Shown piece by piece: positions 2,884 to 42,289 of a DNA stretch of 64,000 nucleotides. The notes beneath the pieces were generated by a model. The model saw nothing but the letters and a program-made list of their open reading frames with translations, was not told the DNA's origin and did not search any database. Source of the DNA: Thermoanaerobaculia bacterium. Lineage in GTDB: Bacteria; Acidobacteriota; Thermoanaerobaculia; UBA5066. The DNA is taken from contig CAWFJJ010000006.1 of assembly GCA_963816185.1 (NCBI GenBank), positions 1,326 to 65,325 of the forward strand, given 5' to 3'. Numbering within the stretch: position 1 is the first letter of the stretch; every line of letters starts with the position of its first letter. The translations under genes were made by a program, and so were the position numbers.

Positions 2884-5133
2884 TTATTTCGCGGCGAACT
2901 CGGGGTCCCCGGCGACGCGCAGGAAGAAGGCCCACACGTCGGCAATCTGGGCTACGGCCTGGTCGCGTGTCGAGCCCATGCCGTGCCCCGCGTCGGGGTC
3001 GATCCGGATCAGCACCGGCTTGCCGCTCTCCGTCGCCGCTTGCAGACGTGCCGCCATCTTGGCCGTCATCCACGGCGCGACCCGACGGTCGTTGAGTCCG
3101 ATCGTGAAGACGACCGCCGGATACGCCCCGCGAGGCGCCACGTGCTGGTACGGATCGACCTCGAGGATCGACTTGAAGCCGGCTTCCGCGTCCGGGTCTC
3201 CAAACTCCATCTTCTGGTTCGCGCCGTTCTCGGCGGCCAGGAGGCGCAGAGGGTTGACCATACCCACGGCGATGTGGGCGCCTGCGAACAGGTCGGGCCG
3301 CTCCGTGATCGCGCGGCCGACCAGAACCCCGCCGGCGCTGCCCCCTTGAGCGAAAAGGCGCGACGGAGTCGTCAGCTTCCTGGCGACGAGGTACTCGCCG
3401 CAGGCGATGAAGTCGCGGATGCCGTTCATCTTCTTCTCGTGGCTCCCGTCGACGTGCCAGCGTTCGCCTTTCTCGCCGCCGCCGCGCACGTGAGCCACCG
3501 CGAGAACGCCGCCGCGTTCGAGCCACGCCAGGAAGGAGGGGCGGAAGAACGGCGTCGCGGAGATGCCGTAGGCGCCGTACCCATGAAGGATCGCCGGGTG
3601 CGAGCCGTCGAGGACGAGGTCCTTGCGGTGCAGGATCGACAGCGGCACGTGCGCGCCGTCAGGGCTGACCGCCTCCACTTCCTCGGCGGCAATCTGCGAA
3701 AAGTCGGCGACCGAGGTGCTGCCGATGCCGATCGCCCGGACCTGCTTCGTTTCGGGACCGTAGGCGAAATAGGTACCGGGTCGAGTCCACGTCGTGAGGT
3801 CGAAGCTCGCACCGTCGCGGAGCGCGTCCGTCGCCAGGTCGTCGATCCACCCGTCCGCCGGAAGCGCGAGCGCCGCGGCGGTCTTCGCCTTCCAGGCGAG
3901 GCGCCAGAGCTGCGCGCGACCGTTCGCCATCTTCCGGACGTAGAGCGCGTCGCGCGCCGGCGCGATCGTGTCGATGGTCGCGTTCGGGTCCTCGGCGATC
4001 TCGACGCGTGCCTTGGCGAGATCCGGGTTCTCGAGCGGCACCGAAACGAGTCGCCGGTTCGAGGCGCCCTTGTAGGTGAGAAGGTAGAGGCGGCCGCCAT
4101 GGACGACGGCGGCCTCGACGTCGTCGTCGTAGTTCGCAACCGGACGCCATGCTGTCTTCGCGCTGCCGCTGCGGTCCAGATCCGCGATCGCGGCGACGGC
4201 GAACCGGCTGTTGCTGTGGGCGCCTCCAGCGGATGCGACGAGCCAGCGCGAATCGGGCGAGGCGGAAACACCCGGGAACTCGTCCGGCGCGATTTTCATG
4301 GTCTGCGAGTCGCCGCCTTCGAGGATCAGGACATCCTTCTCGACGGGTTCGCCAAGAACATGGAGCCGCACTTTCATGTTGAGCATCGGATCGGCGCCCG
4401 ATGCCGGCGCGGCCATTTGCGTGTAGAAAAAGCCTTTGCCGTCGGGCAGCCACTCCGCCGGAAACTCGCCCCAGATCCGCTCGACGACGTCGGGAAGCTG
4501 CTTCCCGCTGTCGACGTCGATCACGTGGATCGCGCAGACTTCGCTCCCGCCGGTCGAGAGGTTGTAGGCCACGCGTGCACCGTCGGGCGACGGCGCGTAG
4601 CTGTTGAGCGAGGCATGCGTGTCCTTGCCGCCGAGCGCAGCAGGGTCGACAAGAACCTTCATCTTCGCATCGGCGTCGCGGACGGAAAGCTTGGGAAGCT
4701 GCTCCCCGGCGGCGAGAGCCAAATAGAAGGCTCGCCCGCCGGCGAGCTGCATGGAGGATGCCGTCGACGTGTCGCTCGCGAGGTGGCGCACACGTTCGAA
4801 CAGCTTCGTACGGCCGGGGACGCCCGCGAGGAACGTAGTGGTGTATGCACCCTGCGCGCGGAGCCAACCCTCGAGCTCCGGGTTCTTGGCGCCCTCCATC
4901 CAACGGTACGGGTCGACCACCTTCACGCCGAAGCGCTCCTCGACGACATCCGTCTTTCGCGCCACCGGGAGAGTCGCATGGGGCGCAACCGCGGACGGCA
5001 CGGCCTGCCGCTCTTTCGTCGTCGGCGTCGTGAGGGCCGTGGGCGACGGCTGGCCGAAGCCGGCCCGCGCGAGGAACAAGATCGTCCAGGTCAGAAGCAC
5101 GAGGCGAACCGTTCGGGTCGTCATGTGACGCAT
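2884..5133 (-). CDS. prolyl oligopeptidase family S9A serine peptidase, secreted
   Basis: 749 aa; signal peptide; N-terminal beta-propeller (VDPYRWMEG); C-terminal catalytic domain with HGYGAYGIS, GGSAGG (nucleophile Ser) and a C-terminal GHG. Confidence 0.85.
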   Translation of the reverse strand: MRHMTTRTVRLVLLTWTILFLARAGFGQPSPTALTTPTTKERQAVPSAVAPHATLPVARKTDVVEERFGVKVVDPYRWMEGAKNPELEGWLRAQGAYTTTFLAGVPGRTKLFERVRHLASDTSTASSMQLAGGRAFYLALAAGEQLPKLSVRDADAKMKVLVDPAALGGKDTHASLNSYAPSPDGARVAYNLSTGGSEVCAIHVIDVDSGKQLPDVVERIWGEFPAEWLPDGKGFFYTQMAAPASGADPMLNMKVRLHVLGEPVEKDVLILEGGDSQTMKIAPDEFPGVSASPDSRWLVASAGGAHSNSRFAVAAIADLDRSGSAKTAWRPVANYDDDVEAAVVHGGRLYLLTYKGASNRRLVSVPLENPDLAKARVEIAEDPNATIDTIAPARDALYVRKMANGRAQLWRLAWKAKTAAALALPADGWIDDLATDALRDGASFDLTTWTRPGTYFAYGPETKQVRAIGIGSTSVADFSQIAAEEVEAVSPDGAHVPLSILHRKDLVLDGSHPAILHGYGAYGISATPFFRPSFLAWLERGGVLAVAHVRGGGEKGERWHVDGSHEKKMNGIRDFIACGEYLVARKLTTPSRLFAQGGSAGGVLVGRAITERPDLFAGAHIAVGMVNPLRLLAAENGANQKMEFGDPDAEAGFKSILEVDPYQHVAPRGAYPAVVFTIGLNDRRVAPWMTAKMAARLQAATESGKPVLIRIDPDAGHGMGSTRDQAVAQIADVWAFFLRVAGDPEFAAK

Positions 5134-6098: not shown

Positions 6099-7100
6099 GT
6101 GCAGGCTCTCTTTCGGCAGGAAGTATTCCACGCGGGCAGCCGGGTGTTCCGGTGGGAGGACGTCGTCCTGGCGGCGGAGCTGTGGGGCGACTGGAAGCTC
6201 ATCGAAGAGAGGGCGCTTCAGAATCTCGCCGTCCTCGCCTCCGTGGACTCCGGAACCGAATCCGCGGTGCCGGAAGATGAGATCGACAAGGCGGCGGACG
6301 ACTTCCGGTACGAGCGGGATCTCATCACGGCCGAGGAGCTCGAGCGTTGGCTCTCACGCTGGCGCCTCGACGCCGAGACCTGGCTCGGCTGGATTCACGC
6401 CACCCTGCTCCGCGACCGTCTGCCGGGCATCGTCTTTTCAGGCCGGCCGGAAGCAGAGGTTCGTCAGGTCGAGCTGGCCGTCCTCGCCGAGGCCGTCTGC
6501 TCCGGGGAACTGGAGCGTCTCGGTCGGCAGCTCGCCGCCCGCGCCGCGATCGCAGAGCGGGAGAGAGAACGAGAGAAGGTCGCCGACGACGAGGATCGAA
6601 ACTCGGCCGGGTCGCTCGCCGAGCGTCGGGAAGTCCTCGCCCGGCTGGAGCTTTCGTACGAGCGGTTCCGTGAGGAGGTGCTCACTCCGGACGCCCTGGC
6701 TGCGCGGGTCAAGGCGCGCCTTACCGATTGGACCCGAATCAGCTGCAGCGTCCTGAGGCTTTCGGCCGAAGACGCCGCGCGCGAGGCGGCGATGGCGGTG
6801 CGCCAGGAGGGAGTCGACCTCGGAACGCTGGCGGAGGAGATCGGCGAGGCCACGGAAGACGGCGTGGAGTTTCTCGAGGAGGCGGAGCCGGAGGTCCGTG
6901 ACATCCTTCTCTCGGCGAGGCCGGGAGAGCTCGTCGGGCCGGTGAACGTCGGCGACGAGTTCGTGCTCGTCTCTGTCCGCGCGAAGACCCCGCCGGCGCC
7001 CGACGATCCCGAGGTGCTCGAGAGAGCCGAGTCGAGCCTCCTGGAAGGGCTCGTCGCACGCGAGGTCGACAACAGGATCACGTGGACATGGAAGCCGTGA
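6099..7100 (+). CDS. PpiC-type (parvulin) peptidyl-prolyl isomerase domain protein; first gene of the exporter operon
   Basis: GTG at 6099 follows GAGAGG RBS; the ORF-track start at 5634 overlaps the divergent NRDE gene and is rejected. The C-terminus ARPGELVGPVNVGDEFVLVSVRA matches the parvulin core (G.SGPV.T.FGYH). Its stop overlaps the ABC gene start by 19 nt. Confidence 0.55.
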   Translation: MQALFRQEVFHAGSRVFRWEDVVLAAELWGDWKLIEERALQNLAVLASVDSGTESAVPEDEIDKAADDFRYERDLITAEELERWLSRWRLDAETWLGWIHATLLRDRLPGIVFSGRPEAEVRQVELAVLAEAVCSGELERLGRQLAARAAIAEREREREKVADDEDRNSAGSLAERREVLARLELSYERFREEVLTPDALAARVKARLTDWTRISCSVLRLSAEDAAREAAMAVRQEGVDLGTLAEEIGEATEDGVEFLEEAEPEVRDILLSARPGELVGPVNVGDEFVLVSVRAKTPPAPDDPEVLERAESSLLEGLVAREVDNRITWTWKP

Positions 7101-10100
7101 CGAGCAAGGCGAGCTCGGCCGCCGCATCGGAGATCGAGGCGGCCCGGATCTTCCTCGACGACCTGCCGCTCCTGAAGTTCCTCTCGCCCGCGTCGCGCGC
7201 CGCCGTGACCGCGAAGTTCGTTCCCGTCGCCTTTCCCTTCGGCGCCGTCATTCTCCGCGAGGGCGACCCCGCCGACGCCTTCTTCGTCGTCGTCGCCGGG
7301 AAAGCGCGGGCGGTGAAGACGGGGGAACAGGGCGAGGAGGTTTCGCTTGGCGTACTTCGGCCCGGAGACAGCTTCGGCGAGATGGGTCTTCTGGATCCTT
7401 CAGCAAAGCGGCAGGCCACCGTACGCGCCTCGAGCGCGGCGACGGTCCTCCGGCTCGACCGGAACGCCTTCGACGCGCTTCTTTCCGGTGATCCGGAGAT
7501 CCGGACCTGCCTGGAGCTCCACGTCAGGTACCGGAGCCTCCAGAACCTCTTCCGTCTCTACACTCCTTTTTCCACCCTTCCGCCGTCCGTCCTCGCCGGG
7601 CTCCTCCACCGGTTCGAGACGATCTCCGTCGCCGCCGGTGAGGCCGTCTTTCGACAGGGGGATGGCGAGGGGCCTCTCTTCGTCGTCGAGGAAGGGCGGC
7701 TTCGCGTCTTCACCGAAGACGATGGGCACCGGCGAAACATCGCTTATCTGCGAAAAGGCGACGTCTTCGGAGAGATCTCGGCCTTCACGGGGGAACCGAG
7801 AAAGGCCACGGTCGAGGCTGTCACGCCCTGCCGGCTCCTGAGCCTTCACCCGAGCGCCTTCCGGGCGGTCACGGACGCTCACCCGGAATTTCGCGCGGCC
7901 ATCGGACGACGTATCGCCCAGTACGACTATCGAAAAGAGGCCAGGGTGCCGCTCGACTTCGCCGACGAGCTCCTGCCCGCGGAGGCGCAGGTGGAGGAGG
8001 TGGGACCCGACCAGATCGACGAGGACGCCGATCGTCCGCCGGACGAATCTTCAGCGGAGGGATCCGCCGCTCCCTTCGCGACGGAAGACGGTCGGTTCGT
8101 CAAGGGGCCTCGGCGGATCCGCCGCTTTCGCTTCGTCCGGCAGATCGACGAAATGGACTGCGGCGCGGCCTCCCTCGCGATGGTCTGCCGCCACTTCGGC
8201 CGCGCGGTGAGCCTCGCGCGGATCCGGCAGCTCCTCTTCACGTCGACTGACGGCACCAGCCTCCGGGCGGTCTGCCGCGGTGCGGAGGAGCTGGGGCTCG
8301 CCGCGCGCTCCGTCAAGGCCTCGGCGAGGCACCTGGACCAGATGCCGCTCCCCGCGATCCTGCACTGGGGCGGCAACCACTGGGTCGTCCTTTACGACGT
8401 GAGCCCGACGGAGGCTCGCGTGGCCGACCCGGGGGTCGGGCTCAGGCGCCTTCCCCGCGCGGAGGTCGAGAAGGAGTGGACCGGCTACGCCGCCCTCTTC
8501 GACTACACGGAGGCGTTCGAGAAGGCTCCGGTGGGGCGCTCCAGCTTCGCCTGGCTCACCCGGTTCTTCCGGCCGCACGCGGGCGTCCTCGCGAAGGCGG
8601 CCGGCCTCGCCCTGATCGTCAGCGTCCTGCAGATGGTCCTCCCGGTCTTCAGCCAGGTCATCGTCGACCGGGTTCTCGTCGAGCGCGACGAGGGGCTGCT
8701 CCGGATCCTCCTTTTCGGGATGGGAGGCGTCCTCGTCTTCTCGACTCTCGCGATGGTCCTGCAGCGATATCTCCTGAGCTTCGCCGCGGTCCGGATCGAC
8801 GCCTCGACGCTCGACTTCGTCACGCGGCGCCTCCTGTCGCTTCCGATGTCCTACTTCTCGACGCGGAAGACAGGCGACATCCAGCGCCGCCTCATGGGCC
8901 TCCGGCAGGTGCGAGAGCTCCTCGTCCAGTACGGGGTCTCCTCGCTGACCGCCCTCTCGCAGCTCTCCGCGGTCCTGATCCTGATGTTCGTCTACAGCCC
9001 CCTCCTCGCGGGCGTCTTTCTCGCGACCGTCCCCCTCTACGCCCTTCTCATGCGGTACTCGAGGCGCCGGCTGCGTCCCGTCTTCGACACGCTCGAGGAG
9101 GCGTTCGGAAAGTATTCCGCCCAGCAGATCGACACCATCAAGGGGATCGAGACCGTCAAGTCGCTCGGGGCCGAAGGCTCCCTCCGTCAGCTGATGCTGG
9201 AGAGGTTCCTCGGCCTCGCCCGAAAGCAGTTCCGCGCCGACTTCACGGTCATGACCTACGAAGGCGCCGTCCAGGCCGTGAGCTTCCTCTCGACCGCCCT
9301 CTTCCTCTGGGCGGGGGCCGTCCAGGTGATGCGCGGGTCGCTCACCATCGGCGGGCTCGTCGCGTTCAACACCCTCGTCGCCCTCGCGAACGCCCCGATC
9401 GGGATCCTGCTCGCGACCTGGGACCACCTCCAGTACGGAACGGTTCTCCTCGACCGCCTGAACGACGTCTTCGAGCAGAAGCCCGAGCAGGGCGACGACC
9501 GGTCCCAGCTTCTCCCGGTCCGGACGCTCGCGGGAAAGGTGTCGCTCCGAAACGTCGGCTTCCGATTCGGCGGGCCCGAGTCGCCGTTGATCCTCGACGG
9601 CCTGACGTTCGACGTGGACCCGGGAAAGATGGTGGCGATCGTCGGCCGGAGCGGCTCCGGCAAGACGACCCTCGCCAAGCTCCTCTCCGGCCTCATGGAG
9701 CCGACCGAAGGATCGATTCTTTTCGACGGAGCGGACCTCAAGACGCTGAATTACCGGGACCTCAGGCGCCGCGTCGGCTTCGTCCTCCAGGAGAACTACC
9801 TCTTCGACGAGACGATCGCCCGGAACATCGCCTTCGGCGACGGCGAGCCCGACGTGGACCGGGTCCTTTGGGCCGCCCGGGTCGCGAGCGCCCACGAGTT
9901 CGTCGAGAGGTTTCCGCTCGGCTACGACACCCGGGTCGGCGAGTCGGGCCTCGCCCTCTCCGGCGGGCAGAAGCAGCGCGTCGCCATCGCGCGGGCCGTC
10001 TACAACCGTCCCCCGGTCCTGATCTTCGACGAGGCGACCAGCTCTCTCGACACCGAATCGGAGCGGGCGGTCAAGGAGAACCTCGACCGCCTTCTGGAGG

Positions 10101-10264
10101 GCCGGACGTCGTTCGTGATCGCCCACAGGCTCAGCACCATCCGCGACGCGGACGTCATCCTCGTCCTGGAGAAGGGACGTCTCGTCGAGCACGGGACTCA
10201 CGACGAGCTGATGGACCGCCAGGGGCTCTACTACTACCTGTCGAGCCAGCAGCTCGGGATCTAG
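7082..10264 (+). CDS. bacteriocin/RiPP-type ABC exporter: two cNMP-binding domains + C39 double-glycine peptidase domain + ABC TMD + NBD
   Basis: 1060 aa. Two cNMP-binding domains (GDSFGEMGLL..ATVRA and GDVFGEISAF..ATVEA); C39 active-site Cys (QIDEMDCGAASLAMVC) with HWGGNHWVVLY; six-helix TMD; Walker A GRSGSGKTT, signature LSGGQKQR, Walker B VLIFDEATS. Confidence 0.9.
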   Translation: MDMEAVTSKASSAAASEIEAARIFLDDLPLLKFLSPASRAAVTAKFVPVAFPFGAVILREGDPADAFFVVVAGKARAVKTGEQGEEVSLGVLRPGDSFGEMGLLDPSAKRQATVRASSAATVLRLDRNAFDALLSGDPEIRTCLELHVRYRSLQNLFRLYTPFSTLPPSVLAGLLHRFETISVAAGEAVFRQGDGEGPLFVVEEGRLRVFTEDDGHRRNIAYLRKGDVFGEISAFTGEPRKATVEAVTPCRLLSLHPSAFRAVTDAHPEFRAAIGRRIAQYDYRKEARVPLDFADELLPAEAQVEEVGPDQIDEDADRPPDESSAEGSAAPFATEDGRFVKGPRRIRRFRFVRQIDEMDCGAASLAMVCRHFGRAVSLARIRQLLFTSTDGTSLRAVCRGAEELGLAARSVKASARHLDQMPLPAILHWGGNHWVVLYDVSPTEARVADPGVGLRRLPRAEVEKEWTGYAALFDYTEAFEKAPVGRSSFAWLTRFFRPHAGVLAKAAGLALIVSVLQMVLPVFSQVIVDRVLVERDEGLLRILLFGMGGVLVFSTLAMVLQRYLLSFAAVRIDASTLDFVTRRLLSLPMSYFSTRKTGDIQRRLMGLRQVRELLVQYGVSSLTALSQLSAVLILMFVYSPLLAGVFLATVPLYALLMRYSRRRLRPVFDTLEEAFGKYSAQQIDTIKGIETVKSLGAEGSLRQLMLERFLGLARKQFRADFTVMTYEGAVQAVSFLSTALFLWAGAVQVMRGSLTIGGLVAFNTLVALANAPIGILLATWDHLQYGTVLLDRLNDVFEQKPEQGDDRSQLLPVRTLAGKVSLRNVGFRFGGPESPLILDGLTFDVDPGKMVAIVGRSGSGKTTLAKLLSGLMEPTEGSILFDGADLKTLNYRDLRRRVGFVLQENYLFDETIARNIAFGDGEPDVDRVLWAARVASAHEFVERFPLGYDTRVGESGLALSGGQKQRVAIARAVYNRPPVLIFDEATSSLDTESERAVKENLDRLLEGRTSFVIAHRLSTIRDADVILVLEKGRLVEHGTHDELMDRQGLYYYLSSQQLGI

Positions 10265-11466
10265 ATGGACGAGGCGCCGTTCCTCCCGAGCGACCCGCCG
10301 CCCTTCGCGGCCCGGAGCCTCGCATGGCTCCTGATCGCCCTCTTCGCAGTGGCCGCTGTCGTATCGGTGGCGGTCAAGGTTCCCGAAACGGTCGTCGCCC
10401 CGTTCGCCCTTGTGCCCATGCGCGGCACCGATCCGGTTCGCGCTCCGCACGGAGGCACGGTCACGGAGGCTCTTGCCGTCGAGGGGCGCCCCGTGGCCAA
10501 GGGCGCGAGGCTCTTTGCCATCCGGTCGCAGGAGTTCGGGGACAGGGCCTCCGAGCGGAAGGCGCTCGAAGCAGGCCTCGGCGGACTTGCCGAGAGCCTT
10601 TCCAACGCCCGGAAGAGATTCGACAGCGAGGCCGGCGAGAGGCGTGAGGAGGCCCGGAGTCTCGCCGATCGCGCGGCCTATCTCGATCGGATGCTGGCTT
10701 TGAAGAGGGAGCAGCTCGCCTTGACGCTGGAGCAGTCCGAGCGGGCGAAGAAGCTCGCCGACCAGGGGCTCGCGAGCTTCAACGACCGTTCCGACGCCCA
10801 GATCCGGCACAGCCAGACCGTCATGGAGCTCGAGCAGCTCCAGTCCGACCGGAGCGCGACCGGGAGCGCCATCGAGAAGCTTCGCGACACCGAAGCGGCG
10901 AAGGGGACCGAGTTCCACGAGGAGGAGCGGGTCCTCGAGGAGAAGATCGCTCAGGCGAGAATCAGGATCGGCGCGCTCAGCGGGGGGCGCCCTCCGCCGG
11001 CGGAGACGAATCTGGAAACGAGCTGGCCGTCACTTCTCCGTGCGACGGCACCGTTCTCGGCGTCACGGCGCGGCGGGCCGGGGCGGTGGTCCGCGAAGGC
11101 GACGTCCTCGCCGAGGTCGCCTGCTCCGCCGAGACCCTGCAGGCCGAGCTGAGCCTCCCGCAGGGAGGGCTCTCCCGGATCCACCCCGGCCAGAGCGTCC
11201 GCCTCCTCCTCGACGCGTTCCCGTACCAGCGCTACGGCGTCCGCGGGGGAAGGGTCCGGTGGGCCAGCCCCTCCGGGGTCGGGACCCGCGAGGCCGCGAC
11301 CTTCCCCGTCCTCGTCGACCTGGACGAGCAGGCCGTCCCGGCGGACGGCGAGCGCAAGCCGCTCCTGGCGGGAATGCGCGGCACCGCGCGCGTCGTCGTC
11401 GGCCGCCGCACGCTCGTCGAGTACGCCTTCGAGCCTCTCCGGCAGCTTCGGGAGAACCTCCGGTGA
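10265..11466 (+). CDS. HlyD-family membrane fusion/secretion adaptor; interrupted by a -1 frameshift at the G6 run 10981-10986
   Basis: ATG abuts the ABC stop (TAGATG). N-terminal TM plus coiled-coil in frame A (10265..~10985). C-terminal HlyD barrel (GNELAVTSPCDGTVLGV..GQSVRLLLDAFPYQRYG) in the frame of ORF 11086..11466. Adding one G to the G6 run restores a continuous protein (..IGALSGGAPSAGGDESGNELAV..). Confidence 0.75.
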
Positions 11467-11532
11467 CGCGGAAGAGCTTCGCTCGACGCGACGCAACTCA
11501 CGCTCGAGACCTTCCGGAGCGCCGACGCCGCG

Positions 11533-12438
11533 ATGCGCCGCTGCCTCGACGTGGCGCGTGCCGCCTGCCGGACCGAGCTTCCGCTCCTCCTCCTCGGCGA
11601 GTCGGGGACCGGAAAGACGCTCCTCGCCCAGGCGATCCACAACTCCTCTCCGAGAGCGTCGGCTCCCTTCGTCTCCTTCAACGCCGCGGCCCTCTCCGAC
11701 ACGCTCCTCGACAGCCAGCTCTTCGGCCACGAGAAAGGGGCGTTCACGGACGCCAAGCAGCCGCTGCGCGGCAAGTTCGAGGTCGCCGACGGCGGGACCC
11801 TCTTCATCGACGAGATCGCCGACATGAGCCCGCTCGCCCAGGCGAAGATCCTCCGGGCGGTCGAATACGGAGAGTTCGAGAGGCTCGGATCCGAGCGGCT
11901 CCGCAAGGCGGACGTCCGCCTGATCTCGGCCACCCGCCACCCGCTGGAGCGGTTTGCGAACACCGAGCAGTTCCGGAGCGATCTCTTCTACAGGCTCGCG
12001 GGGCTCACCGTCACCCTTCCCCCGCTGCGCGAGCGGCCGAACGACCTGCGCGAGCTCGTCGCGGCCTCGATCCATCGCGCCGCTCACGCACAGGGACGGA
12101 CCATCTCCGGTCTCTCCCAGAAGGCCGCCGATGCCCTTTTCTCGTATCACTGGCCCGGGAATCTCCGGGAGCTCGACCTCGTCATCCACGCCGCAGTCGC
12201 GATGACCGAGGGCTCGGTGATCGAGGAATTTGCGATCCTGGTCCGAAACAACGGCGGGCCCGGGACGTCCCCTTCCGCCGCGCGGCCGGTCCCTGCGGCC
12301 GACCTGAGCCTCCGGGCCGTCGAGCGAGACCACATTCACCGGGTCCTCCGGGAGCTCGGGGGGAACAAGACGAGGGCCGCCAGGACCCTCGGCATCTCGC
12401 GCTCCCGCCTCGAGAGGAAGCTCAACGACGCGAAGTGA
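11533..12438 (+). CDS. sigma-54-dependent transcriptional activator (bEBP), AAA+ central domain + Fis-type HTH, no N-terminal receiver/sensor domain
   Basis: Walker A GESGTGKT; GAFTGA-like region EKGAFTDA; R-finger/ESELFGH-like motifs; C-terminal HTH (KTRAARTLGISRSRLERKL). No in-frame start codon exists between the HlyD stop and ATG 11533, so the protein starts at the AAA+ domain, PspF-like. Confidence 0.85.
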   Translation: MRRCLDVARAACRTELPLLLLGESGTGKTLLAQAIHNSSPRASAPFVSFNAAALSDTLLDSQLFGHEKGAFTDAKQPLRGKFEVADGGTLFIDEIADMSPLAQAKILRAVEYGEFERLGSERLRKADVRLISATRHPLERFANTEQFRSDLFYRLAGLTVTLPPLRERPNDLRELVAASIHRAAHAQGRTISGLSQKAADALFSYHWPGNLRELDLVIHAAVAMTEGSVIEEFAILVRNNGGPGTSPSAARPVPAADLSLRAVERDHIHRVLRELGGNKTRAARTLGISRSRLERKLNDAK

Positions 12439-12573: not shown

Positions 12574-12589
12574 TGGAACGGTCCTTGCT
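12574..12589 (+). promoter_or_regulatory. candidate sigma-54 (-24/-12) promoter TGGAACGGTCCTTGCT
   Basis: Matches TGGCACG-N4-TTGCW at 11 of 12 fixed positions with exact GG/GC spacing; lies 135 bp downstream of the bEBP gene and ~40 bp upstream of the first RBS of the precursor array; a 6-bp-stem inverted repeat (CTGAGActgttTCTCAG) sits immediately upstream. Confidence 0.5.
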
Positions 12590-12630: not shown

Positions 12631-12912
12631 GTGAACCACGAAGAAAACCCCCTCGGGCTTCTACAAGAAGGCGGTGAAGGACCTCGACGTCAAGCCCGCC
12701 AAGGTGACGTCCGCCCGGGCGTCCAGTCTCGAACCGGCCGTCAGCGACCGCGAAGAAGGCGAAGAACCGATCATGAAGAAGACCCCGAAGAAAAGCGCCC
12801 GGACAAGCTTCTCAAAGAAGACGCGGTCAAGGACCTCGCACCAAGCTCCGCCAAGGGCAGGCGGCACGAGGCGGCACGGGAAGGTCTGTGACAGGGGTGG
12901 ATCGAGCATCTG
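12631..12912 (+). pseudogene. two decayed precursor-peptide gene copies at the head of the array (frame-disrupted)
   Basis: The DNA is clearly homologous to intact precursor genes, with the same RBS AGGAGAAACGAC then GTG, and AAGGCGGTGAAGGACCTCGACGTCAAGCCCGCCAAG. Small indels break the frame: copy 1 reads VNHEENPLG..; copy 2 from ATG 12773 reads MKKTPKKSA then out of frame; the leader-like KEDAVKDLAPSSAKG reappears in another frame. Confidence 0.5.
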
Positions 12913-13190
12913 ACGAGCGACCTCCAGCTCGGCAAGGTTCTCGTCCGAGAGATTCCTGTCACTGCGACATGAAGACGGGCCGCCGCAAGACGAAGCCGTC
13001 GCCGGGGTTCGTCCCCCTCAGGGACCTCGTCCCCCGAAACGACCCCAAGGGCGGGTCGGCCGGGAAGACGGTATTCGGTGAACGTCCCCCGATCGCTCGA
13101 GACAGAAGAAAAGCACCCCTTCAAGGATGTTCCGGCCGAACGAAGGCAGAAGCCGGGTCACGACCGAAACAGGAAGAAAGGAGAAACGCC
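12913..13190 (+). repeat. intergenic array repeat, copy R1 (divergent 5' part)
   Basis: Shares ~200 nt with the other copies (ATGAAGACGGGCCGCCG..GGTATTCGGTGAACGTCCCC..CCGGCCGAACGAAGGCAGAAGCCGGGTCACGACCGAAACAGGAAG) ending in the RBS of P1. Confidence 0.7.
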
Positions 13191-13376
13191 ATGAAGAAGA
13201 CCACGAAGAAAAGCTCCTCGAAGGCCTCTCACAAGAGAGCCCGCAAAAACCTCGACGTCACGCCTGCCAAGGGCGGGACCGTCCGGGGAGGCGGCAAGGC
13301 GGGCTCGGGCAGGACTACTGTCAGCGACCTCCAGATCAGCAAAGTTGTCGACAAGAGTTCAGCCGTGCTGTTCTGA
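13191..13376 (+). CDS. precursor peptide P1 (61 aa); leader MKKTTKKSSSKASHKRARKNLDVTPAKGGTVRGG + core GKAGSGRTTVSDLQISKVVDKSSAVLF
   Basis: Strong RBS AGGAGAAACGCC-ATG; conserved leader shared with 14 other genes; long Ser/Thr-rich core; stop 23 nt before the CxxCxxCC-1 start. Confidence 0.7.
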   Translation: MKKTTKKSSSKASHKRARKNLDVTPAKGGTVRGGGKAGSGRTTVSDLQISKVVDKSSAVLF

Positions 13377-13399
13377 GAGCGACCTGCTCGAAGACTGGC

Positions 13400-14542
13400 A
13401 TGGTACGGCTTCCGACGATCCCGGACACTCCCGCCAAAGGCCCGGCTCCGCTCCATGCACGCTGGCTCGAAGAGGCCCTCGGGGGAAAGATCCCCTCCGA
13501 GCCCCACGCCACGTGCGAGAGCTGCCCCATGCTCCCTGTGCCCGGCGGCGCGGACGGGGCCCGGGACGCGGTCTTCTTCAATCCCAAGACGAAGTGCTGC
13601 ACCTACCTGCCGAGGCTTCACAACTTTCTCGTCGGCGCGATCCTGGCAGACGAGGCGCCCGACATGGCCGAAGGGCAGGCGCGCGTTCTCGAGAGGATCG
13701 GAAAAAGGGTCGGCGTGACGCCGCTTTGGGTCGGCGCCGGTGGAGCGTACAGCCTCATGTACGACCACGGTGACGGGGTCTTCGGCCACAGCGAGGCGAT
13801 GCGCTGCCCCTACTACCTCGAGGATCGGATCGGCGGCGGCTGCGGGATATGGCGTCACCGCAATTCCATCTGCATGACCTGGTTCTGCAAGCACGAGCGC
13901 GGGGCCCGGGCGCTGCGGTTCTGGGACTCGGCCAAAGAGCTGCTGATGGCCGTCGAGGAGAACCTCGCGATCCACTGCCTCGTCACCCTCGGTTTCGACG
14001 ACGCGGCGCTCCGGACCAATTTCCCGTTCAAGGTTCCGAAGTCTCAGCGGACGGAAACCGTGAAGGGGGACGAGCTCGACGGCACGGTGAGCCCCGAGAG
14101 GTACAAGGCCCTCTGGGGAAGCTGGGCTGGCCGCGAGAAGGAGCTCTACCTCCTAAGCGACGGGATCGTCCGGAACATGGAGTGGAAGGACGTCGAGCGA
14201 ATCGGCGGCGCGAACGTCGCTCTCCTCTCGCAGCTCGCACGCGCTGCCTACCAGACGGCAGCCAGCGACGCTCTTCCGGAGCGCCTCGAAATCGGCAACC
14301 TCAACGTCATCGGCGCCGGGCGTAAGACCGTGCGCCTCGGCACCTACAGCCCATACGACCCCATCGATGCTCCTGCCGCGCTTCTTCCGGCATTGCCCGC
14401 CTTCGACGGCTCCAGGGTACCCGACGCCCTCCGCGCGATCGAGAAGGATCATGGGCTCGTCCTGAGCCCCGAGCTCGTCCGAAAGCTCGTCGACTACGGC
14501 CTGCTCCGCGCGGTGACCGCCCCCGAAGACGAGCGAGTCTAA
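13400..14542 (+). CDS. CxxCxxCC-motif protein (YkgJ / PF03692-like, family that includes flagellin lysine N-methylase FliB), paralog 1; candidate peptide-modifying enzyme
   Basis: 380 aa from ATG 13400 (the ORF-track start at 13127 is upstream repeat read-through). Motifs CESCPMLP..KTKCCTYLPRLHNF and CPYYLEDRIGGGCGIWRHRNSICMTWFCKHE match the recalled Cx2Cx..CC plus C..CxIY..RP..CR.FPF pattern of the family. 85-90% identical to paralog 2. Confidence 0.7.
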   Translation: MVRLPTIPDTPAKGPAPLHARWLEEALGGKIPSEPHATCESCPMLPVPGGADGARDAVFFNPKTKCCTYLPRLHNFLVGAILADEAPDMAEGQARVLERIGKRVGVTPLWVGAGGAYSLMYDHGDGVFGHSEAMRCPYYLEDRIGGGCGIWRHRNSICMTWFCKHERGARALRFWDSAKELLMAVEENLAIHCLVTLGFDDAALRTNFPFKVPKSQRTETVKGDELDGTVSPERYKALWGSWAGREKELYLLSDGIVRNMEWKDVERIGGANVALLSQLARAAYQTAASDALPERLEIGNLNVIGAGRKTVRLGTYSPYDPIDAPAALLPALPAFDGSRVPDALRAIEKDHGLVLSPELVRKLVDYGLLRAVTAPEDERV

Positions 14543-14605
14543 CCAGAACTCGATGAGAAGGCCGAAGCCGGGTCATGAACAAATCAGGGCAAAAGGAGAA
14601 ACGAC

Positions 14606-14737
14606 GTGAAGAAGACCACGAAGAAAAGCCCCTCGAAGGCATCTCACAAGAAGGCGGTCAAGAACCTCGAGCTCAAAACGGTTAAGAGCGGGACGGTCCG
14701 AGGAGGAGTACCCGCGGTCCAAAAGTCAGGGAGATAG
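14606..14737 (+). CDS. precursor peptide P2 (43 aa); leader VKKTTKKSPSKASHKKAVKNLELKTVKSGTVRGG + core VPAVQKSGR
   Basis: GTG start after AAAAGGAGAAACGAC; conserved leader; preceded by a truncated array repeat. Confidence 0.65.
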   Translation: MKKTTKKSPSKASHKKAVKNLELKTVKSGTVRGGVPAVQKSGR

Positions 14738-14747
14738 GAGGAGCAAC

Positions 14748-14885
14748 ATGAAAAAGATCGCGAAGAAGGGCGCCCCGAAGGCCTCTCACAAGAAATCGGT
14801 CAAGGACCTCGAGATCAAGCCCGCCAAGGGCGGGACGGGCGAGACGGTCCGTGGCGGCAAGATGATCGACAAGATCCACATCTGA
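14748..14885 (+). CDS. precursor peptide P3 (45 aa); leader MKKIAKKGAPKASHKKSVKDLEIKPAKGGTGETVRGG + core KMIDKIHI
   Basis: RBS GGAGGAGCAAC-ATG 10 nt after the P2 stop; core of the K..KIHI type. Confidence 0.7.
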   Translation: MKKIAKKGAPKASHKKSVKDLEIKPAKGGTGETVRGGKMIDKIHI

Positions 14886-15145
14886 CGAGCGCCGCCTGCT
14901 GCAAGGATCGCCCGACCTTCGATGATGAAGACAGGCCGCCGAGGACCAAGCCGTCGCCGGGGGTTCGTCCTCCTCAGAGATCTCATCCCTCGAAACGACC
15001 CCAAAGGCGGGTCGGCCGGGAAAACGGTATTCGGTGAACGTCCCACGGTCCTCGAGACAGAAGAAAAGCACCCCCATGAGGATGTTCCGGCCGAACGAAG
15101 GCAGACGCCGGGTCACGGCCGAAACAGGAGGAAAGGAGACACGAT
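14886..15145 (+). repeat. intergenic array repeat, full copy R2
   Basis: ~260 nt starting at TCTGACGAGCGCCGCCTGCTGCAAGG..ATGATGAAGACAGGCCGCCGAGGACCAAGCCGTCGCCGGGGG.. and ending in RBS AGGAGACACGAT before P4; contains the spurious 75-aa ORF 14922..15149. Confidence 0.75.
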
Positions 15146-15286
15146 ATGAAGAAGACCACGAAGAAGACCCCGAAGGCCTCGCACAAGAAGGCGGTCAGGA
15201 ACCTCGACGTCAAGCCCGCGAAGGGTGGAACGGTCCGTGGCGGAATACATGGTGGCTGGGACCAGCTCGCGAACAAGAAAGTTTGA
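15146..15286 (+). CDS. precursor peptide P4 (46 aa); leader MKKTTKKTPKASHKKAVRNLDVKPAKGGTVRGG + core IHGGWDQLANKKV
   Basis: Conserved RBS and leader; core of the HGGWDQ type shared with P13 and P14. Confidence 0.7.
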   Translation: MKKTTKKTPKASHKKAVRNLDVKPAKGGTVRGGIHGGWDQLANKKV

Positions 15287-15373
15287 GTTCCTGGAACACC
15301 CTTCTTAGAAAGTCCGGTCGAACGAAGGTAGAAGCCGGGTCACGACCGAAACAGGAAGTAAGGAGAAGACGTC

Positions 15374-15520
15374 ATGAACAACCCCAAGAAGAAGAGCGCC
15401 TCGAAGGCCTCCCACAAGAGGAAGGTGAAGGACCTCGAGATCAAGCCCGCCAAAGGAGGGACCGTCCGTGGAGGCAAGGTCTTTCCCAAGGTGACCACGG
15501 GTTTGCTCGACAAGTACTAG
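15374..15520 (+). CDS. precursor peptide P5 (48 aa); leader MNNPKKKSASKASHKRKVKDLEIKPAKGGTVRGG + core KVFPKVTTGLLDKY
   Basis: RBS AAGGAGAAGACGTC-ATG; MNNPKKK leader variant shared with P7. Confidence 0.7.
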   Translation: MNNPKKKSASKASHKRKVKDLEIKPAKGGTVRGGKVFPKVTTGLLDKY

Positions 15521-15596
15521 CGAGGCTGAAGTTACCCCTTTCGTCGCGCGACCTCGCGCTCGGTCACGACCGAAACAGGAAGAAGGGAGACACGAC

Positions 15597-15734
15597 ATGA
15601 AGAAGAACGCGAAGAAGAACCCTCCGAAGGGTTCCCGAAAGAACGCAATCAAGGACCTCGAGATCAAGCCCGCCAAGGGCGGGACGGACGGGACGGTCCG
15701 TGGCGGCAAGTTCGAGACCAAGATCCACATCTGA
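15597..15734 (+). CDS. precursor peptide P6 (45 aa); leader MKKNAKKNPPKGSRKNAIKDLEIKPAKGGTDGTVRGG + core KFETKIHI
   Basis: RBS GGGAGACACGAC-ATG; K..KIHI-type core; followed by full repeat R3. Confidence 0.7.
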   Translation: MKKNAKKNPPKGSRKNAIKDLEIKPAKGGTDGTVRGGKFETKIHI

Positions 15735-15996
15735 CGAGGGCCGCTTGCCGTAAGGGCCGATCGGCCCCTCGATGATGAAGACAGTCCGCCGAGGACCAAG
15801 CCTTCGCCAGGGATTCGTTCCCCTCAGGGACCTCGTGCCCTGAAACGACCCCAAGGGGGGGTCCGCTGGGAAGACGGTATTCGGCGAACGTCCCCCGGTT
15901 TCCGTGACAGAAATGACACAGCGCTTCCAGGATGTTCCGGCCGCACGAAGGCAGAAGCCGGGTCACGGTCGAAACAGTAAGTAAGGAGAAGACGTC
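15735..15996 (+). repeat. intergenic array repeat, full copy R3
   Basis: Same unit as R2 with point differences and single-base indels. Confidence 0.75.
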
Positions 15997-16128
15997 ATGA
16001 ACAACCCCAAGAAGAAGAGCGCCTCGAAGGCTTCCCACAAGAAGACGGTCAAGAACCTCGAGGTCACGCCCGTCAAGGGCGGGAAGGTCCGTGGGGGCTT
16101 CCCGACGCCATGGAAAAACAAGGTCTAA
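15997..16128 (+). CDS. precursor peptide P7 (43 aa); leader MNNPKKKSASKASHKKTVKNLEVTPVKGGKVRGG + core FPTPWKNKV
   Basis: RBS TAAGGAGAAGACGTC-ATG; conserved leader. Confidence 0.7.
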   Translation: MNNPKKKSASKASHKKTVKNLEVTPVKGGKVRGGFPTPWKNKV

Positions 16129-16174
16129 TGCCGCCCGAAATGACGCGCGAATCCAGAAGAAAGGAGAAACGAAC

Positions 16175-16306
16175 ATGAAAAAGACCTCGAAGAAGAGCGC
16201 CTCGAAGGCATCTCACAAGAAGGCGGTCAAGGACCTCGAGGTCAAGCACGCCAAGAGCGGGACGGTTCGCGGAGGACTGCCCCCCGGTCCACCAACCTAC
16301 AAATGA
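16175..16306 (+). CDS. precursor peptide P8 (43 aa); leader MKKTSKKSASKASHKKAVKDLEVKHAKSGTVRGG + core LPPGPPTYK
   Basis: RBS AAAGGAGAAACGAAC-ATG; Pro-rich core. Confidence 0.7.
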   Translation: MKKTSKKSASKASHKKAVKDLEVKHAKSGTVRGGLPPGPPTYK

Positions 16307-16327
16307 GTGGACAAAATGAGAACCGAC

Positions 16328-16453
16328 ATGAAGAAGACCACGAAGAAAGACCCTTCGAAGGCCTCTAAGAAGAAGGCGGTCAAAAACCTCGAGGTCAAGC
16401 CCGCGAGGGGTGGAACGGTCCGCGGAGGCTGGGACCCGACCAAAGCGCGATAG
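16328..16453 (+). CDS. precursor peptide P9 (41 aa); leader MKKTTKKDPSKASKKKAVKNLEVKPARGGTVRGG + core WDPTKAR
   Basis: Starts 21 nt after P8 with a weak SD, probably coupled; an in-frame alternative ATG at 16316 would add MRTD. Confidence 0.6.
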   Translation: MKKTTKKDPSKASKKKAVKNLEVKPARGGTVRGGWDPTKAR

Positions 16454-16725
16454 CGTCGAAACGAGTCACTCGAAACGACCCCTTCTCCGAAAGTGAACCG
16501 CGAGATGAAGACAGGCCGCGGTAAGACAAAGCCCTCGCCGGGGTTCGTCCCCCTCAGGGACCTCATCCCCCGAAACGATCCCAAGGGCGGGTCGGCCGGG
16601 AAGACGGTATTCGGCGAGCGTCCCCCGGTCCTCGAGGCAGAAGAAAAGCACCCCTTCAAGGATGTTCCGGCCGAACGAAGGCAAAAGCCGGGTCACGACC
16701 GAAACAGGAAGAGAGGAGAGACGAC
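16454..16725 (+). repeat. intergenic array repeat, full copy R4
   Basis: Same unit; contains the spurious ORF 16493..16729. Confidence 0.75.
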
Positions 16726-16914
16726 ATGAAGAAGAACACGAAGAAGACAGCCTCCAAGGCAAAGGGGCCCAAGGCGACGAAGAATCTCGACGTCAAGCCC
16801 GCCAAGGGCGCGAAGGTCCGTGGTGGAACTGTAAACAAGGGGTGGATCGAAGTTTCATCCTTCAGTTTTAATGCGGAACCCACCGTCAGTGTGACCGCGA
16901 AGAAGCCGTCCTGA
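16726..16914 (+). CDS. precursor peptide P10 (62 aa); leader MKKNTKKTASKAKGPKATKNLDVKPAKGAKVRGG + core TVNKGWIEVSSFSFNAEPTVSVTAKKPS
   Basis: Matches ORF-track 16726..16914; long Ser/Thr-rich core; its stop overlaps the GT41 gene start (TGATG). Confidence 0.7.
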   Translation: MKKNTKKTASKAKGPKATKNLDVKPAKGAKVRGGTVNKGWIEVSSFSFNAEPTVSVTAKKPS

Positions 16915-31091: not shown

Positions 31092-32522
31092 ATGGCATAC
31101 CGAATGGCCCGGCAGGTCTGTGTCTTAGCGGCTATGTCAGGAAGTCCGCTTCTCTTGATGGCTCAGGAGCAGGGGCCGGCAGCAGAGGCTTCCGGGAACG
31201 AGGCATCGGTCCAGTCGCAAAATCTGGCCCCGGAGCAACTCGCCGACCTGGTCGCGCCCATCGCGCTGTATCCCGATCCGCTTCTGAGTCAGGTCCTGGT
31301 CGCGAGCACCTACCCGTTGGAGGTCGTCGAGGCGCAGCAGTGGCTGCAACGGAATAGACGTCTGAGGGGCCGGCAGCTGATGGACGCAGCCCAGGAGCAG
31401 AACTGGGACGCCAGCGTTCAGGGACTGGTGGCCTTTCCGGACGTGCTGGACACGCTGAACCAGGACGTCCAATGGACCACGGCATTGGGCAATGCCTTCC
31501 TCGCGCAGCAAGCGGACGTCATGAACGCGGTGCAGCGACTGCGCGCACGGGCGCAGGCGAACGGTACGCTCTCCTCCACCCGGGAGCAGACGGTTACCAC
31601 CGAGACGCCGGGCGAGCAGTCGGTCATAGAGATCGTGCCGGCCGATCCGCAGGTGATTTACGTGCCGGAATACGATCCAGACTCCATCTGGGGACCCCCG
31701 GAGTGGGGCACCTATCCGCCGCTGGATTACGTCAGCTACGGCTTCGGTTTCGGTCCGGCGATTGACATCGGATTTTGCTTCGGCGGGTGGAACGGCTGGG
31801 GCTGGCGCGGCTGGGGTTGGGGCTGGGGCCCGAACTGGTTTGGCGGCTCGGTGTTCGTCAACGGAGCGTTCTTCCGACATCATGGTTTCCACGGCCGGTT
31901 CCTGGCCGGCGGGTTTGCCGGCAGGAGGGTGTGGCGGCACGATCCAGGCCACCGGTCGGGAGTCTCGTACCCGAACGCTCGACTGGCAGCCCGGTATCAG
32001 TCTGCCTCGCTGGCTTCCCGGAGCACGATGGCAAGGCCGGAAAGCTTCAATTCGGCCCGATCGGCCGGCACGGGAAGCTGGAACCGGCTCGGGCCTGGGA
32101 CCGCGTCGACACGCGGAAGCCGACCGGTCACGCAGGGCGTTCGCGCCGCGACACCGCGGAGCACACGGCGCACAACCGAGGAAGCGTGGCGACGCTCTCC
32201 CGGTGCGCAACGCGAGCAGGTTCCCGTGCAGCGTTACTCGGCTCCGATGCGGCGCTATTCGGCCCCGGTGCGGCAGTACTCGGCTCCGGTGCAGCGGTAT
32301 TCGGCTCCGATCCAGCGGTATTCGGCTCCGGTGCAGCGGTATTCGGCTCCGGTCCAGCGCTACCCTTCTTCTACGCCGCGAGTGTCCCCGACGGGAAGTG
32401 GCGGGCGCAGCTTCGGCGGCGGTGCCGGCTCATACGGCTCAAGCCGTGGCGGAGGCGTGAGCAGCACGGGCGGCGGCCATGCCTCCGGTGGCGGCTCACA
32501 CGTTGGCGGCCACCGCCGGTGA
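31092..32522 (+). CDS. DUF3300-domain secreted protein with Gly/Trp-rich low-complexity region and 7x RYSAPVQ tandem repeat
   Basis: [32 protein letters not shown] matches DUF3300; signal peptide; repeats at ~32229..32362. Confidence 0.6.
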
Positions 32523-32682
32523 CTCGGATGAAGGAGTCGACCGCCTAGACGCCCCCGCGGCGCCCCCGCGCGCCTCGCCCGCGCTCCGCATCGCTCACGG
32601 GTCGGCCCTCGGTCGGCTTCCGGCTCTCCGCTTGATGATTGACGCGGGAAGAGCGGGAGTTCACTTTAGCCACGGAGGTTCC

Positions 32683-41977: not shown

Positions 41978-42289
41978 GGAATTGCCTCCTTTAGAAGCGC
42001 AACTGCGAGGATACTCCTACGCCTCTCATCCGTCAATGGCGTCTATGGCGGACGCGGCCGATGGCGGACTGTTGCAAGCATGCGAAACATACGTCCTATG
42101 GTGGGAGATTGGTTAACTGCGCCGGCCTCGCAAAGAGAAGCAGAGCTTGCAAGCCTCTAAGAACCGTACCCCACGAACGTACGCGCGCCGACGTAGTCGT
42201 ATCCCTCGGTCGAAGGGGTTATAAGCTAGCGGGAGTCCGCCCCTGCGGATTTCTGCCTGATCGGATGGCTCCTGAAAGGAGAACAACCC

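Follow-up and report, generated by a model that had tools for sequence, protein, structure and literature searches.

Introduction

Long-type peptidase-containing ABC transporters (PCATs), which carry an N-terminal extension ahead of a C39 peptidase domain, have been described in cyanobacteria, where groups I, II and VI of Wang et al. 2011 (PMC3140520) combine a long-type C39 transporter bearing an N-terminal CAP_ED domain with HlyD and a rotamase-domain SurA. In HetC of Nostoc PCC 7120 the catalytic Cys/His, the ATPase and the cyclic-nucleotide (cNMP)-type region are all required, and its N-terminal domain, the only one from a long-type PCAT to have been tested biochemically, bound ppGpp/GTP: it was protected by GTP, GDP and ppGpp and not by cAMP or 2-oxoglutarate (PMC10986499). 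In PteB of Synechococcus elongatus PCC 7942, the Cys is needed for the secretion of biofilm proteins with a double-glycine (GG) motif (PMC4997328). Two further systems bear on the comparison: rosaritide biosynthesis, in which MirC (TIGR04500) is the obligatory partner or chaperone of a graspetide ligase and a PCAT lies in the same cluster (PMC13097080), and the NHLP/Nif11 system, defined by TIGR03796, TIGR03797 and TIGR03794 (Haft et al. 2010). Here we analyze a 64,000-nucleotide stretch of a Thermoanaerobaculia genome (assembly GCA_963816185.1, contig CAWFJJ010000006.1; hereafter the window), in which genes for a SurA/PrsA-like protein (referred to as PpiC-like), a long-type PCAT, an HlyD-family adaptor and a sigma-54-dependent activator are followed by an array of small peptide genes. 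We consider it likely that these genes form the processing and export module of PCAT-type type I secretion, a cassette of long-type PCAT, SurA-like protein and HlyD, a reading grounded in gene order, domain content, catalytic and ligand-binding residues, protein fold and conservation.

Results

The four genes lie back to back on the + strand, the last of them ending at 12438, in a window whose GC content is 61-74% and in which third-position GC flags + strand frames as coding. Their features are as follows.

6099-7100, + strand: SurA/PrsA-like (PpiC-like) protein, 333 aa; GTG start, TGA stop, ribosome-binding-site-like GAGAGG 5' of the start
6099-7100, + strand: the same protein combines a chaperone module of helices with a single degenerate parvulin fold and a helix at the C-terminus (AlphaFold2, Foldseek)
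7082-10264, + strand: long-type PCAT, 1060 aa from GTG 7082 (Pfam architecture)
7229-7486, + strand: cNMP-binding domain 1, aa 50-135, with cassette F98-G-E100...R110-Q-A-T (Pfam, alignment)
7568-7870, + strand: cNMP-binding domain 2, about aa 163-263, with cassette F229-G-E231...R240-K-A-T (alignment to the cyclic-nucleotide-binding, CNB, domains of PKA RI-alpha)
8126-8503, + strand: C39 peptidase domain, aa 349-474, with Q354, C360, H433 and D449 (alignment to PCAT1, ComA and LahT150)
8606-10042, + strand: six-helix ABC transmembrane domain, aa 509-770, and nucleotide-binding domain, aa 838-987 (Pfam, motifs)
10265-11466, + strand: HlyD-family periplasmic adaptor, 400 aa after repair, frame broken (TIGR01843 match, ortholog in locus L001)
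10981-10986, + strand: G6 run, one base short relative to loci L001, L006 and L007, the site of the HlyD frameshift (DNA alignment)
11463-12438, + strand: sigma-54-dependent activator with AAA+ domain and Fis-type helix-turn-helix and no sensor domain (Sigma54_activat 196.8 bits, HTH_8)

The genes, coordinates and domain order set out in the original prediction, a reading of the bare sequence, were borne out by a Pfam search that found cNMP_binding twice, Peptidase_C39, ABC_membrane, ABC_tran and, marginally, Rotamase_2. The TAG stop of the ABC gene (10262-10264) stands immediately 5' of the HlyD ATG at 10265. Between the PpiC-like and ABC genes, the 19-nt overlap given previously holds if translation starts at GTG 7082, but it shrinks to 13 nt with ATG 7088 or 4 nt with GTG 7097 (a GTGA junction); all three candidates are kept in close orthologs, and the gene call in L001 uses the ATG. 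Overlapping or abutting genes together with synteny in about 80 genomes establish that the PpiC-like, ABC and HlyD genes form one operon, as had been proposed, and this operon continues beyond 11466 into the activator gene.

We examined how widely this arrangement is kept in a scan of one genome per GTDB species, using as query an alignment of a 13-sequence subset of 42 PpiC-like homologues; all neighborhood figures refer to the best 80 of the 250 loci found. Wherever the sequence reaches far enough, a cNMP-type ABC gene lies directly 3' of the PpiC-like gene (77/77 loci), HlyD is present in 66 of 68 loci and the sigma-54 activator in 47 of 54. The order PpiC-like, cNMP-C39-ABC, HlyD, activator and small genes is found in the close relative L001 and also in L003, an acidobacterial locus that is 35% identical and carries a B12-radical SAM enzyme. 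The full five-part order, including a small conserved GG peptide and followed by variable peptides with Lys-rich leaders, recurs in Acidobacteriota, Gemmatimonadota and Verrucomicrobiota, and hosts of the cassette comprise Acidobacteriota (Thermoanaerobaculia, Vicinamibacteria), Gemmatimonadota, Verrucomicrobiota (Chthoniobacterales) and Binatia. The Actinomycetota version lacks the HlyD and activator genes; a missing HlyD is expected there because these bacteria are monoderm. At 50% identity the family numbers 1024 representatives below E 1e-30 and 2915 below E 1e-3. Non-core neighbors are common to at most 12 of the 80 loci and are of a housekeeping kind (PolX, alcohol dehydrogenase (ADH), fumarylacetoacetate (FAA) hydrolase, aminotransferase). 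Together, the recurrence of this order across species genomes places the arrangement far above chance, and the PpiC-like gene, whose position at the head of the operon had been thought unusual, is instead the conserved partner of the long-type PCAT.

The Pfam scores of the ABC protein are 155.7 bits for cNMP_binding (two stretches), 113 for Peptidase_C39, 147.5 for ABC_membrane and 124.6 for ABC_tran, and its ATPase motifs are complete in the order Walker A (aa 855), signature (959), Walker B (980) and H-loop (1014). Its N-terminal 300 or so residues align as a tandem with both CNB domains of PKA/PKG regulatory subunits (E about 1e-21). We counted residue conservation over 75 non-identical orthologs and found the phosphate-binding cassettes to be nearly invariant: E100 is kept in 74/74, R110 in 66/75, and E231 and R240 each in 75/75. 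Ligand binding is plausible for this PCAT family because both cassettes are kept, and sensing of a nucleotide by the N-terminus of the transporter is a plausible function to read from its sequence. The proposal that export or leader cleavage is gated by a cyclic nucleotide therefore stands as far as the FGE...R-x-A-T residues of both domains are concerned, but is qualified by HetC, whose domain bound ppGpp/GTP and not cAMP.

Among solved structures, the closest C39 domains are those of PCAT1 (PDB 4RY2), ComA and LahT150 (E 4e-20 to 1e-17). The residues Q354, C360, H433 and D449 align with the oxyanion Gln and the catalytic Cys, His and Asp of PCAT1 and are invariant in the 75 orthologs wherever the column is occupied, so that the Cys/His pair, on which the original prediction had staked its peptidase, is indeed in place. 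We take the PCAT1 counterparts of the Cys, His and Asp to be C21, H99 and D115.

Two other long-type PCATs depart from this pattern. Those encoded on the plasmids pLBY of the cyanobacterium Leptolyngbya boryana (L087, 5968-8985) and pTT6-2 of the alphaproteobacterium Skermanella (L088, 5953-9162) have lost the phosphate-binding Arg of the cNMP domains; the C39 domain of the pLBY protein has neither the Cys nor the His, and that of the pTT6-2 protein is without the Cys and keeps the His. These losses imply at least two functional classes among long-type PCATs.

The first gene of the operon encodes a protein whose sequence match to a parvulin family is slight (Rotamase_2 at the C-terminus, 27.3 bits in Pfam, marginal against a cut-off of 27) and whose structural match is clear. 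An AlphaFold2 model built from 42 homologs (predicted local distance difference test, pLDDT, 93.4; predicted template-modelling score, pTM, 0.87) found its best solved-structure matches by Foldseek in the foldases SurA and PrsA. The C-terminal 100 residues of the model superpose on isolated parvulin domains with a root-mean-square deviation of 2.3-3.9 Å and template-modelling scores (TMt) of 0.55-0.75, and the family profile aligns with the parvulin strands and C-terminal helix of SurA. The position of the catalytic His in the SurA motif GFHIL is occupied by Val289, and across the 42 relatives this position reads V15/L7/T6/H5; no His was found in the first parvulin strand of these relatives when equivalents of Pin1 H59/H157 were sought. 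Inspection of the sequence revealed no signal peptide or membrane segment, and the protein is predicted to be cytoplasmic. It is strongly acidic, with a net charge of -29 and a pI of 4.6 (family median charge -21.5), while the leaders of the type-1 peptides encoded downstream carry +8 to +11 within 33-37 residues. We count this charge complementarity in favor of a cytoplasmic holdase or adaptor for basic leaders, which we take to be the probable role of the protein, rather than that of an isomerase of Pro-rich cores. Against NCBIfam TIGR04500, the MirC model, the window protein scores 30.2 bits (cut-off 180) and 34 of the 42 relatives match weakly (best E 1e-12); because these matches are weak and far below the cut-off, we regard the PpiC-like family as a distant sister of TIGR04500.

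The third gene, identified in the original prediction as HlyD, was correctly named and has the TAGATG junction reported for it, but it is not a single open reading frame (ORF) in the window. We aligned the window DNA with the orthologous loci L001, L006 and L007, whose PpiC-like proteins are 83-86% and 79% identical to the window copy. One base is missing from the G run at 10981-10986, and the gene is thereby split between frame A, from 10265 to about 10984 (N-terminal half), and frame B, from about 10987 to 11466 (C-terminal half); the L001 ortholog is intact at 400 aa. TIGR01843 (type_I_hlyD) is hit by the C-terminal fragment at E 2e-20; once repaired to 400 aa, the protein reaches E 1.9e-40 and 139.2 bits over aa 108-394, a match that spans the junction and lies under the cut-off of 208.65. 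By its sequence, the product is classed as an HlyD-superfamily adaptor outside curated TIGR01843 membership. We considered a programmed frameshift and rejected it, because all three orthologs read through HlyD uninterrupted in one frame.

The activator gene bears a second lesion. In the orthologs it starts at a GTG or TTG that overlaps the HlyD stop (GTG in L001), but in the window an extra base near 11481 shifts GTG 11463 out of frame and leaves ATG 11533 as the first start in frame. The protein encoded 3' of each indel is still conserved, with 85-91% identity to the orthologs. Assembly error is the simplest explanation of both the frameshift in HlyD and the indel in the activator. The loop of the activator reads GAFTDA in the Thermoanaerobaculia lineage of the window (L001, L007, L008) versus GAFTGA in 57 other cassette loci.

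Downstream of the activator lies the array of putative cargo genes.

12632-20910, + strand: cargo gene array with 16 leader-coding repeats, 15 intact type-1 genes (repeat search, translations)
13191-13376, 14606-14737, 14748-14885, 15146-15286, 15374-15520, + strand: intact type-1 precursors 1-5 (leader repeat)
15597-15734, 15997-16128, 16175-16306, 16328-16453, 16726-16914, + strand: intact type-1 precursors 6-10 (leader repeat)
18607-18741, 18777-18908, 19169-19312, 19394-19537, 20779-20910, + strand: intact type-1 precursors 11-15 (leader repeat)
14925-15149, 16505-16729, 18386-18610, 18948-19172, + strand: intact copies of the type-2 peptide gene (repeat, translation)
12969 and 15775, + strand: damaged copies of the type-2 peptide gene, one with an in-frame stop, one frame-fused
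L001 18535-18759, L003 17231-17392, L026 15960-16151, L060 15549-15758: type-2 peptide in other loci (pattern match)
13400-14542 and 19538-20782, + strand: two paralogs, about 380 aa, of an unclassified Cys-rich protein (ORFs in the array)
16914-18386, + strand: TPR-GT41 (O-GlcNAc-transferase-like) protein (ORF in the array)
12574-12588, + strand: candidate sigma-54 -24/-12 promoter TGGAACGGTCCTTGC between activator and array, the sole exact match in the window

Type-1 precursors consist of a leader, MKKxxKKxxxKASHKKAVKDLEVKPAKGGTVRGG, followed by a core of 7-28 aa, and have no Pfam or NCBIfam family assignment. Related leaders, K-rich and with DL, 8-15 residues and V-[KR]-G-G, are seen in each of the other lineages inspected, in every one of which GG-leader peptides adjoin the cassette. 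The sequence evidence supports the adjacent Gly-Gly peptides as the predicted substrates of the transporter, with a leader family outside NHLP/Nif11, and to this extent the export and leader-cleavage module put forward in the original prediction is upheld. The first two leader copies (12632-12913) are frame-damaged: one reads ..KKAVKDLDVKPAK before running out of frame, the other begins MKKTPKKSA..., which points either to further indel errors in the assembly or to precursor genes that have decayed.

The type-1 cores are hypervariable. Core families include those with C-terminal GWDxxxNKK[VYI], those ending in KIHI, LPPGPPTYK and the Hcp-like VDKSSAVLF; one or two of the 15 are Pro-rich. The GWDxxxNKK[VIYA] end is seen in the window at 15146-15286, 19169-19312 and 19394-19537 and again in L003 at 18166-18351, in a locus whose PpiC-like protein is 35% identical, and the KIHI end recurs at 14748, 15597 and 18777; neither family has an evident pattern of modifiable Cys, Ser or Thr. 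The core ISKVVDKSSAVLF (13191-13376) and its L003 counterpart ITKLVDKSSAVLFQKC (17455-17619) resemble a segment of Hcp (Pfam T6SS_HCP, E 1e-3).

A 225-nt repeat 5' of several precursors was considered as a riboswitch or known RNA, but it has no Rfam match and behaves as a small coding gene; we take it as coding because of its compensating indels, a mild third-position excess (8/11/18) and conservation at the peptide level across phyla. The resulting 74-aa type-2 peptide, MKTGRR...LRDLVPRNDPKGG-SAGKTVFGERP..., matches no known protein or RNA family; in the window, an ATGA/GTGA overlap joins its stop codon to the start of the precursor that follows. In 34 of 51 loci, spread over three phyla, the activator is followed first by a homologue (a Verrucomicrobiota example reads LIRLDDLIPKGNVSGGRQLLFGATD), and the same pattern has no reverse-strand match.

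The two Cys-rich paralogs carry CxxC...CC and ...CMTWFCKHERG and match no Pfam or NCBIfam family. They and the TPR-GT41 protein are probably tailoring enzymes, and they are common only to the close relatives L001 and L006.

We infer from sequence that the activator drives the peptide array via the candidate promoter at 12574. Similar -24/-12 elements lie in L001/L008, L010, L011 and L022/L039, that is, 7 of 52 loci versus about 1.7 expected. The idea of a sigma-54 promoter 5' of every precursor was rejected, as the window holds one exact TGGNAC-N5-TTGC only and the strict pattern is confined to those 7 loci; looser scans of the loci were uninformative. Terminator matches within the array proved to be artefacts of A-rich Lys codons, on the opposite strand.

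Elsewhere in the window lie two prolyl oligopeptidase (S9) genes, at 2884-5133 on the - strand and 42230-44437 on the + strand. The former, which is separated from the operon start by a TANGO2/NRDE gene, was considered as a member of the cluster and set aside: it does not adjoin the cassette in the close relative L001 and is for that reason probably unrelated, and no non-core gene is widely shared among the loci. Two c-di-GMP-II-GAG riboswitch aptamers (49230-49316 and 63472-63558; 49 and 49.8 bits, above the Rfam gathering scores) are also present, the first at the start of an S8 subtilase ORF (49250-51634), as is a GGDEF-EAL protein at 32461-35214.

Discussion

Our preferred reading of the locus as a processing and export module implies the following sequence of events, in which the chaperone role, the identity of the ligand, gating, promoter use and the cleavage site are the inferred parts. 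Translation of the adjacent small genes would produce peptides whose leader is very basic and ends in V-R-G-G. The SurA/PrsA-like protein, acidic and cytoplasmic, would act as a non-catalytic holdase or adaptor that keeps these peptides competent for export or hands them over, either to the transporter or to tailoring enzymes. The C39 domain would then cleave after the Gly-Gly, and the ABC dimer would pump the core out via the HlyD adaptor and a channel in the outer membrane whose gene lies elsewhere. Through the two N-terminal cNMP-type domains, cleavage or transport may be tied to a small nucleotide ligand, and the co-transcribed, sensor-less sigma-54 activator may drive the peptide array.

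Several observations weigh against this reading. The leader is atypical for PCAT substrates, with an internal Gly-Gly and Pro, a Gly at -7 and no fit to the canonical helical motif, and its recognition by the PCAT is for this reason an assumption. Neither a TolC-like outer-membrane factor nor a nucleotide cyclase was found among the 20 larger window ORFs scanned, and none is conserved near the cassette. With HlyD frameshifted and the 5' end of the activator disrupted, the copy in the window may be inactive. Not every parvulin strictly needs its histidines for catalysis, and the PpiC-like protein could accordingly still have peptidyl-prolyl isomerase (PPIase) activity. Finally, the homologous domain of HetC failed to bind cAMP (PMC10986499).

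The competing account that fares best, although we think it less likely than not, concerns the cargo: the peptides may be secreted without modification, as signals or for a matrix, in the manner of EbfG/PteB in biofilm formation or HetC in differentiation, and not be antimicrobial peptides made by ribosomes and modified after translation (RiPPs), the tailoring genes being a late add-on. Most loci, those of Verrucomicrobiota in particular, have no conserved enzyme beside the cassette and are flanked by housekeeping genes; the type-2 peptide is kept across three phyla, unlike hypervariable toxins; and PteB and HetC provide precedents. This account has to contend with the GT41-like glycosyltransferase and the duplicated Cys-rich protein within the array of the window and its close relatives, with the B12-radical SAM enzyme of L003, and with type-1 cores that are as hypervariable as those of bacteriocin arrays.

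Somewhat less probable, in our estimation, is that the window holds a decaying, non-functional remnant in which the HlyD frameshift, the altered activator start and the damaged peptide copies are real mutations. Two 1-nt indels, opposite in sign, fall within about 500 nt when compared with three orthologs, and to them must be added the decayed leaders at 12632-12913 and the type-2 copies with an in-frame stop or a fused frame. Yet no damage is seen in the PpiC-like gene, in the 3.2-kb ABC gene, in 15 of the precursors or in either tailoring paralog, and third-position GC gives a strong coding signal; the deletion lies in a G6 homopolymer of a metagenome-type assembly with 68% GC, a classic site of error; and the sequence 3' of each indel goes on coding for conserved protein.

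On a par with decay, we regard it as rather unlikely that the N-terminal domains dispense with cyclic nucleotides and instead bind (p)ppGpp/GTP as in HetC, or dock the SurA-like protein, the leader or the activator. The protection of the HetC domain by guanine nucleotides speaks for such a role, as do the diversity of ligands among CRP/FNR-type domains and the lack of a cyclase near the cassette. Set against this, PKA/CAP-type domains contact the ribose and the cyclic phosphate with a Glu and an Arg that both domains retain; these residues hardly vary among the 75 orthologs and are lost in the other long-type PCATs examined.

Least credible is the original combination of an active parvulin PPIase that isomerises Pro-rich cores with cAMP or cGMP as the specific gate of export, on the model of NHLP/Nif11 exporters: a real parvulin fold (TMt 0.6-0.75 to isolated parvulin domains), one or two Pro-rich cores such as LPPGPPTYK and canonical phosphate-binding cassettes lend it some appeal, but the equivalents of the catalytic His are absent and unconserved, the gene also occurs at loci without Pro-rich cores, so that chaperoning of such cores by the PpiC-like protein is unlikely, Haft et al. 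2010 has no such architecture, the TIGR03796 and TIGR03794 cut-offs are missed, there is no second ABC gene, and HetC bound ppGpp/GTP rather than cAMP.

Returning to the export module, a more ambitious extension of it, which we offer as speculation and think improbable, is that the five-part cassette is a self-contained, so far undescribed, second-messenger-gated circuit for peptide signalling or secretion in soil bacteria, with the type-2 GG peptide as ancestral cargo, for example an autoinducer, and the activator, having no sensor of its own, controlled by the nucleotide-binding domains of the exporter or by the SurA-like protein. If this were true, the hypervariable peptide array would be transcribed under feedback from both the level of the nucleotide and the status of export.

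For the original prediction, the value of this analysis is mainly corrective, in that the architecture is no surprise, the citation was wrong and the PPIase idea is unlikely. The wider interest lies in the family. Long-type PCATs with nucleotide-sensor domains are known in cyanobacteria, and the window family, in which canonical cNMP residues and C39 active-site residues are kept, offers a clean system for addressing both their ligand and the role of the SurA-like protein. Moreover, the cassette is abundant in hard-to-culture soil phyla, and an unclassified Lys-rich leader family accompanied by a conserved small peptide would escape genome mining built on known leader or enzyme families. We found no paper on the cassette outside cyanobacteria, a weak sign of novelty given that literature coverage was incomplete.

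How, then, does the cassette compare with known systems? Its architecture is already known from cyanobacteria, and the PpiC-like gene is a hallmark partner of the long-type PCAT. Like the window, groups I, II and VI of Wang et al. 2011 combine a rotamase/SurA-like protein, a long-type C39 ABC transporter whose CAP_ED/cNMP extension is some 300 aa long, and HlyD, with double-glycine precursors alongside; those clusters are cyanobacterial, whereas the window cassette is acidobacterial and adds the sigma-54 activator, the type-2 peptide and Lys-rich leaders. It is this paper, and not Haft et al. 2010 as originally cited, that describes the cNMP-C39 architecture, the text of the latter containing neither 'cyclic nucleotide' nor 'cNMP'. 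The product name 'cyclic nucleotide-regulated ABC bacteriocin/lantibiotic exporter' is in use in GenBank. Leptolyngbya boryana pLBY has the order peptidylprolyl isomerase, long PCAT, HlyD, and its isomerase is related to the PpiC-like family over the parvulin domain only (hhalign probability 83%, E 9e-6); it too is without the C-terminal parvulin His (GYNLF), but the window family keeps the C39 Cys/His and the cNMP Arg that are gone from the pLBY PCAT.

Compared by description, HetC and PteB are, like the window protein, PCATs with an N-terminal cNMP-type domain ahead of C39, and their cargo relates to differentiation or biofilm. HetC differs in having no adjoining adaptor gene, a single reported Pfam cNMP domain and ppGpp/GTP as ligand in vitro. 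MirC resembles the PpiC-like protein as a SurA-like chaperone-domain protein near a PCAT in a peptide cluster, with its role given as partner or chaperone and not as PPIase, but it partners a graspetide ATP-grasp ligase, for which the window has no counterpart, and its C-domain is unlike a PPIase domain according to its authors (PMC13097080), whereas the window protein has a clear parvulin fold.

The NHLP/Nif11 system likewise pairs a C39-ABC transporter and an HlyD-like adaptor with large paralogous families of GG-leader precursors, and TIGR03796 is the top NCBIfam model for the window ABC protein (527 bits, cut-off 853.3). We nevertheless rejected membership: all three cut-offs are missed, with the repaired HlyD scoring 30.9 bits against its NHLP-system model (cut-off 156.2), a second ABC gene, one without a peptidase, is absent, the precursors are neither NHLP nor Nif11, and cNMP domains, present in the window ABC protein, lie outside the description of Haft et al. 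2010. PCAT1, ComA and LahT150 differ more plainly, with no N-terminal nucleotide-binding extension, no SurA-like partner and helical leaders of the LSxxELxxIxGG type. Relative to the known kind, what is new here is the stable link both to a sigma-54 activator that lacks a sensor and to a small GG peptide that is conserved, together with the Lys-rich leader family, the retention of canonical cNMP-binding residues and the wide spread in soil phyla.

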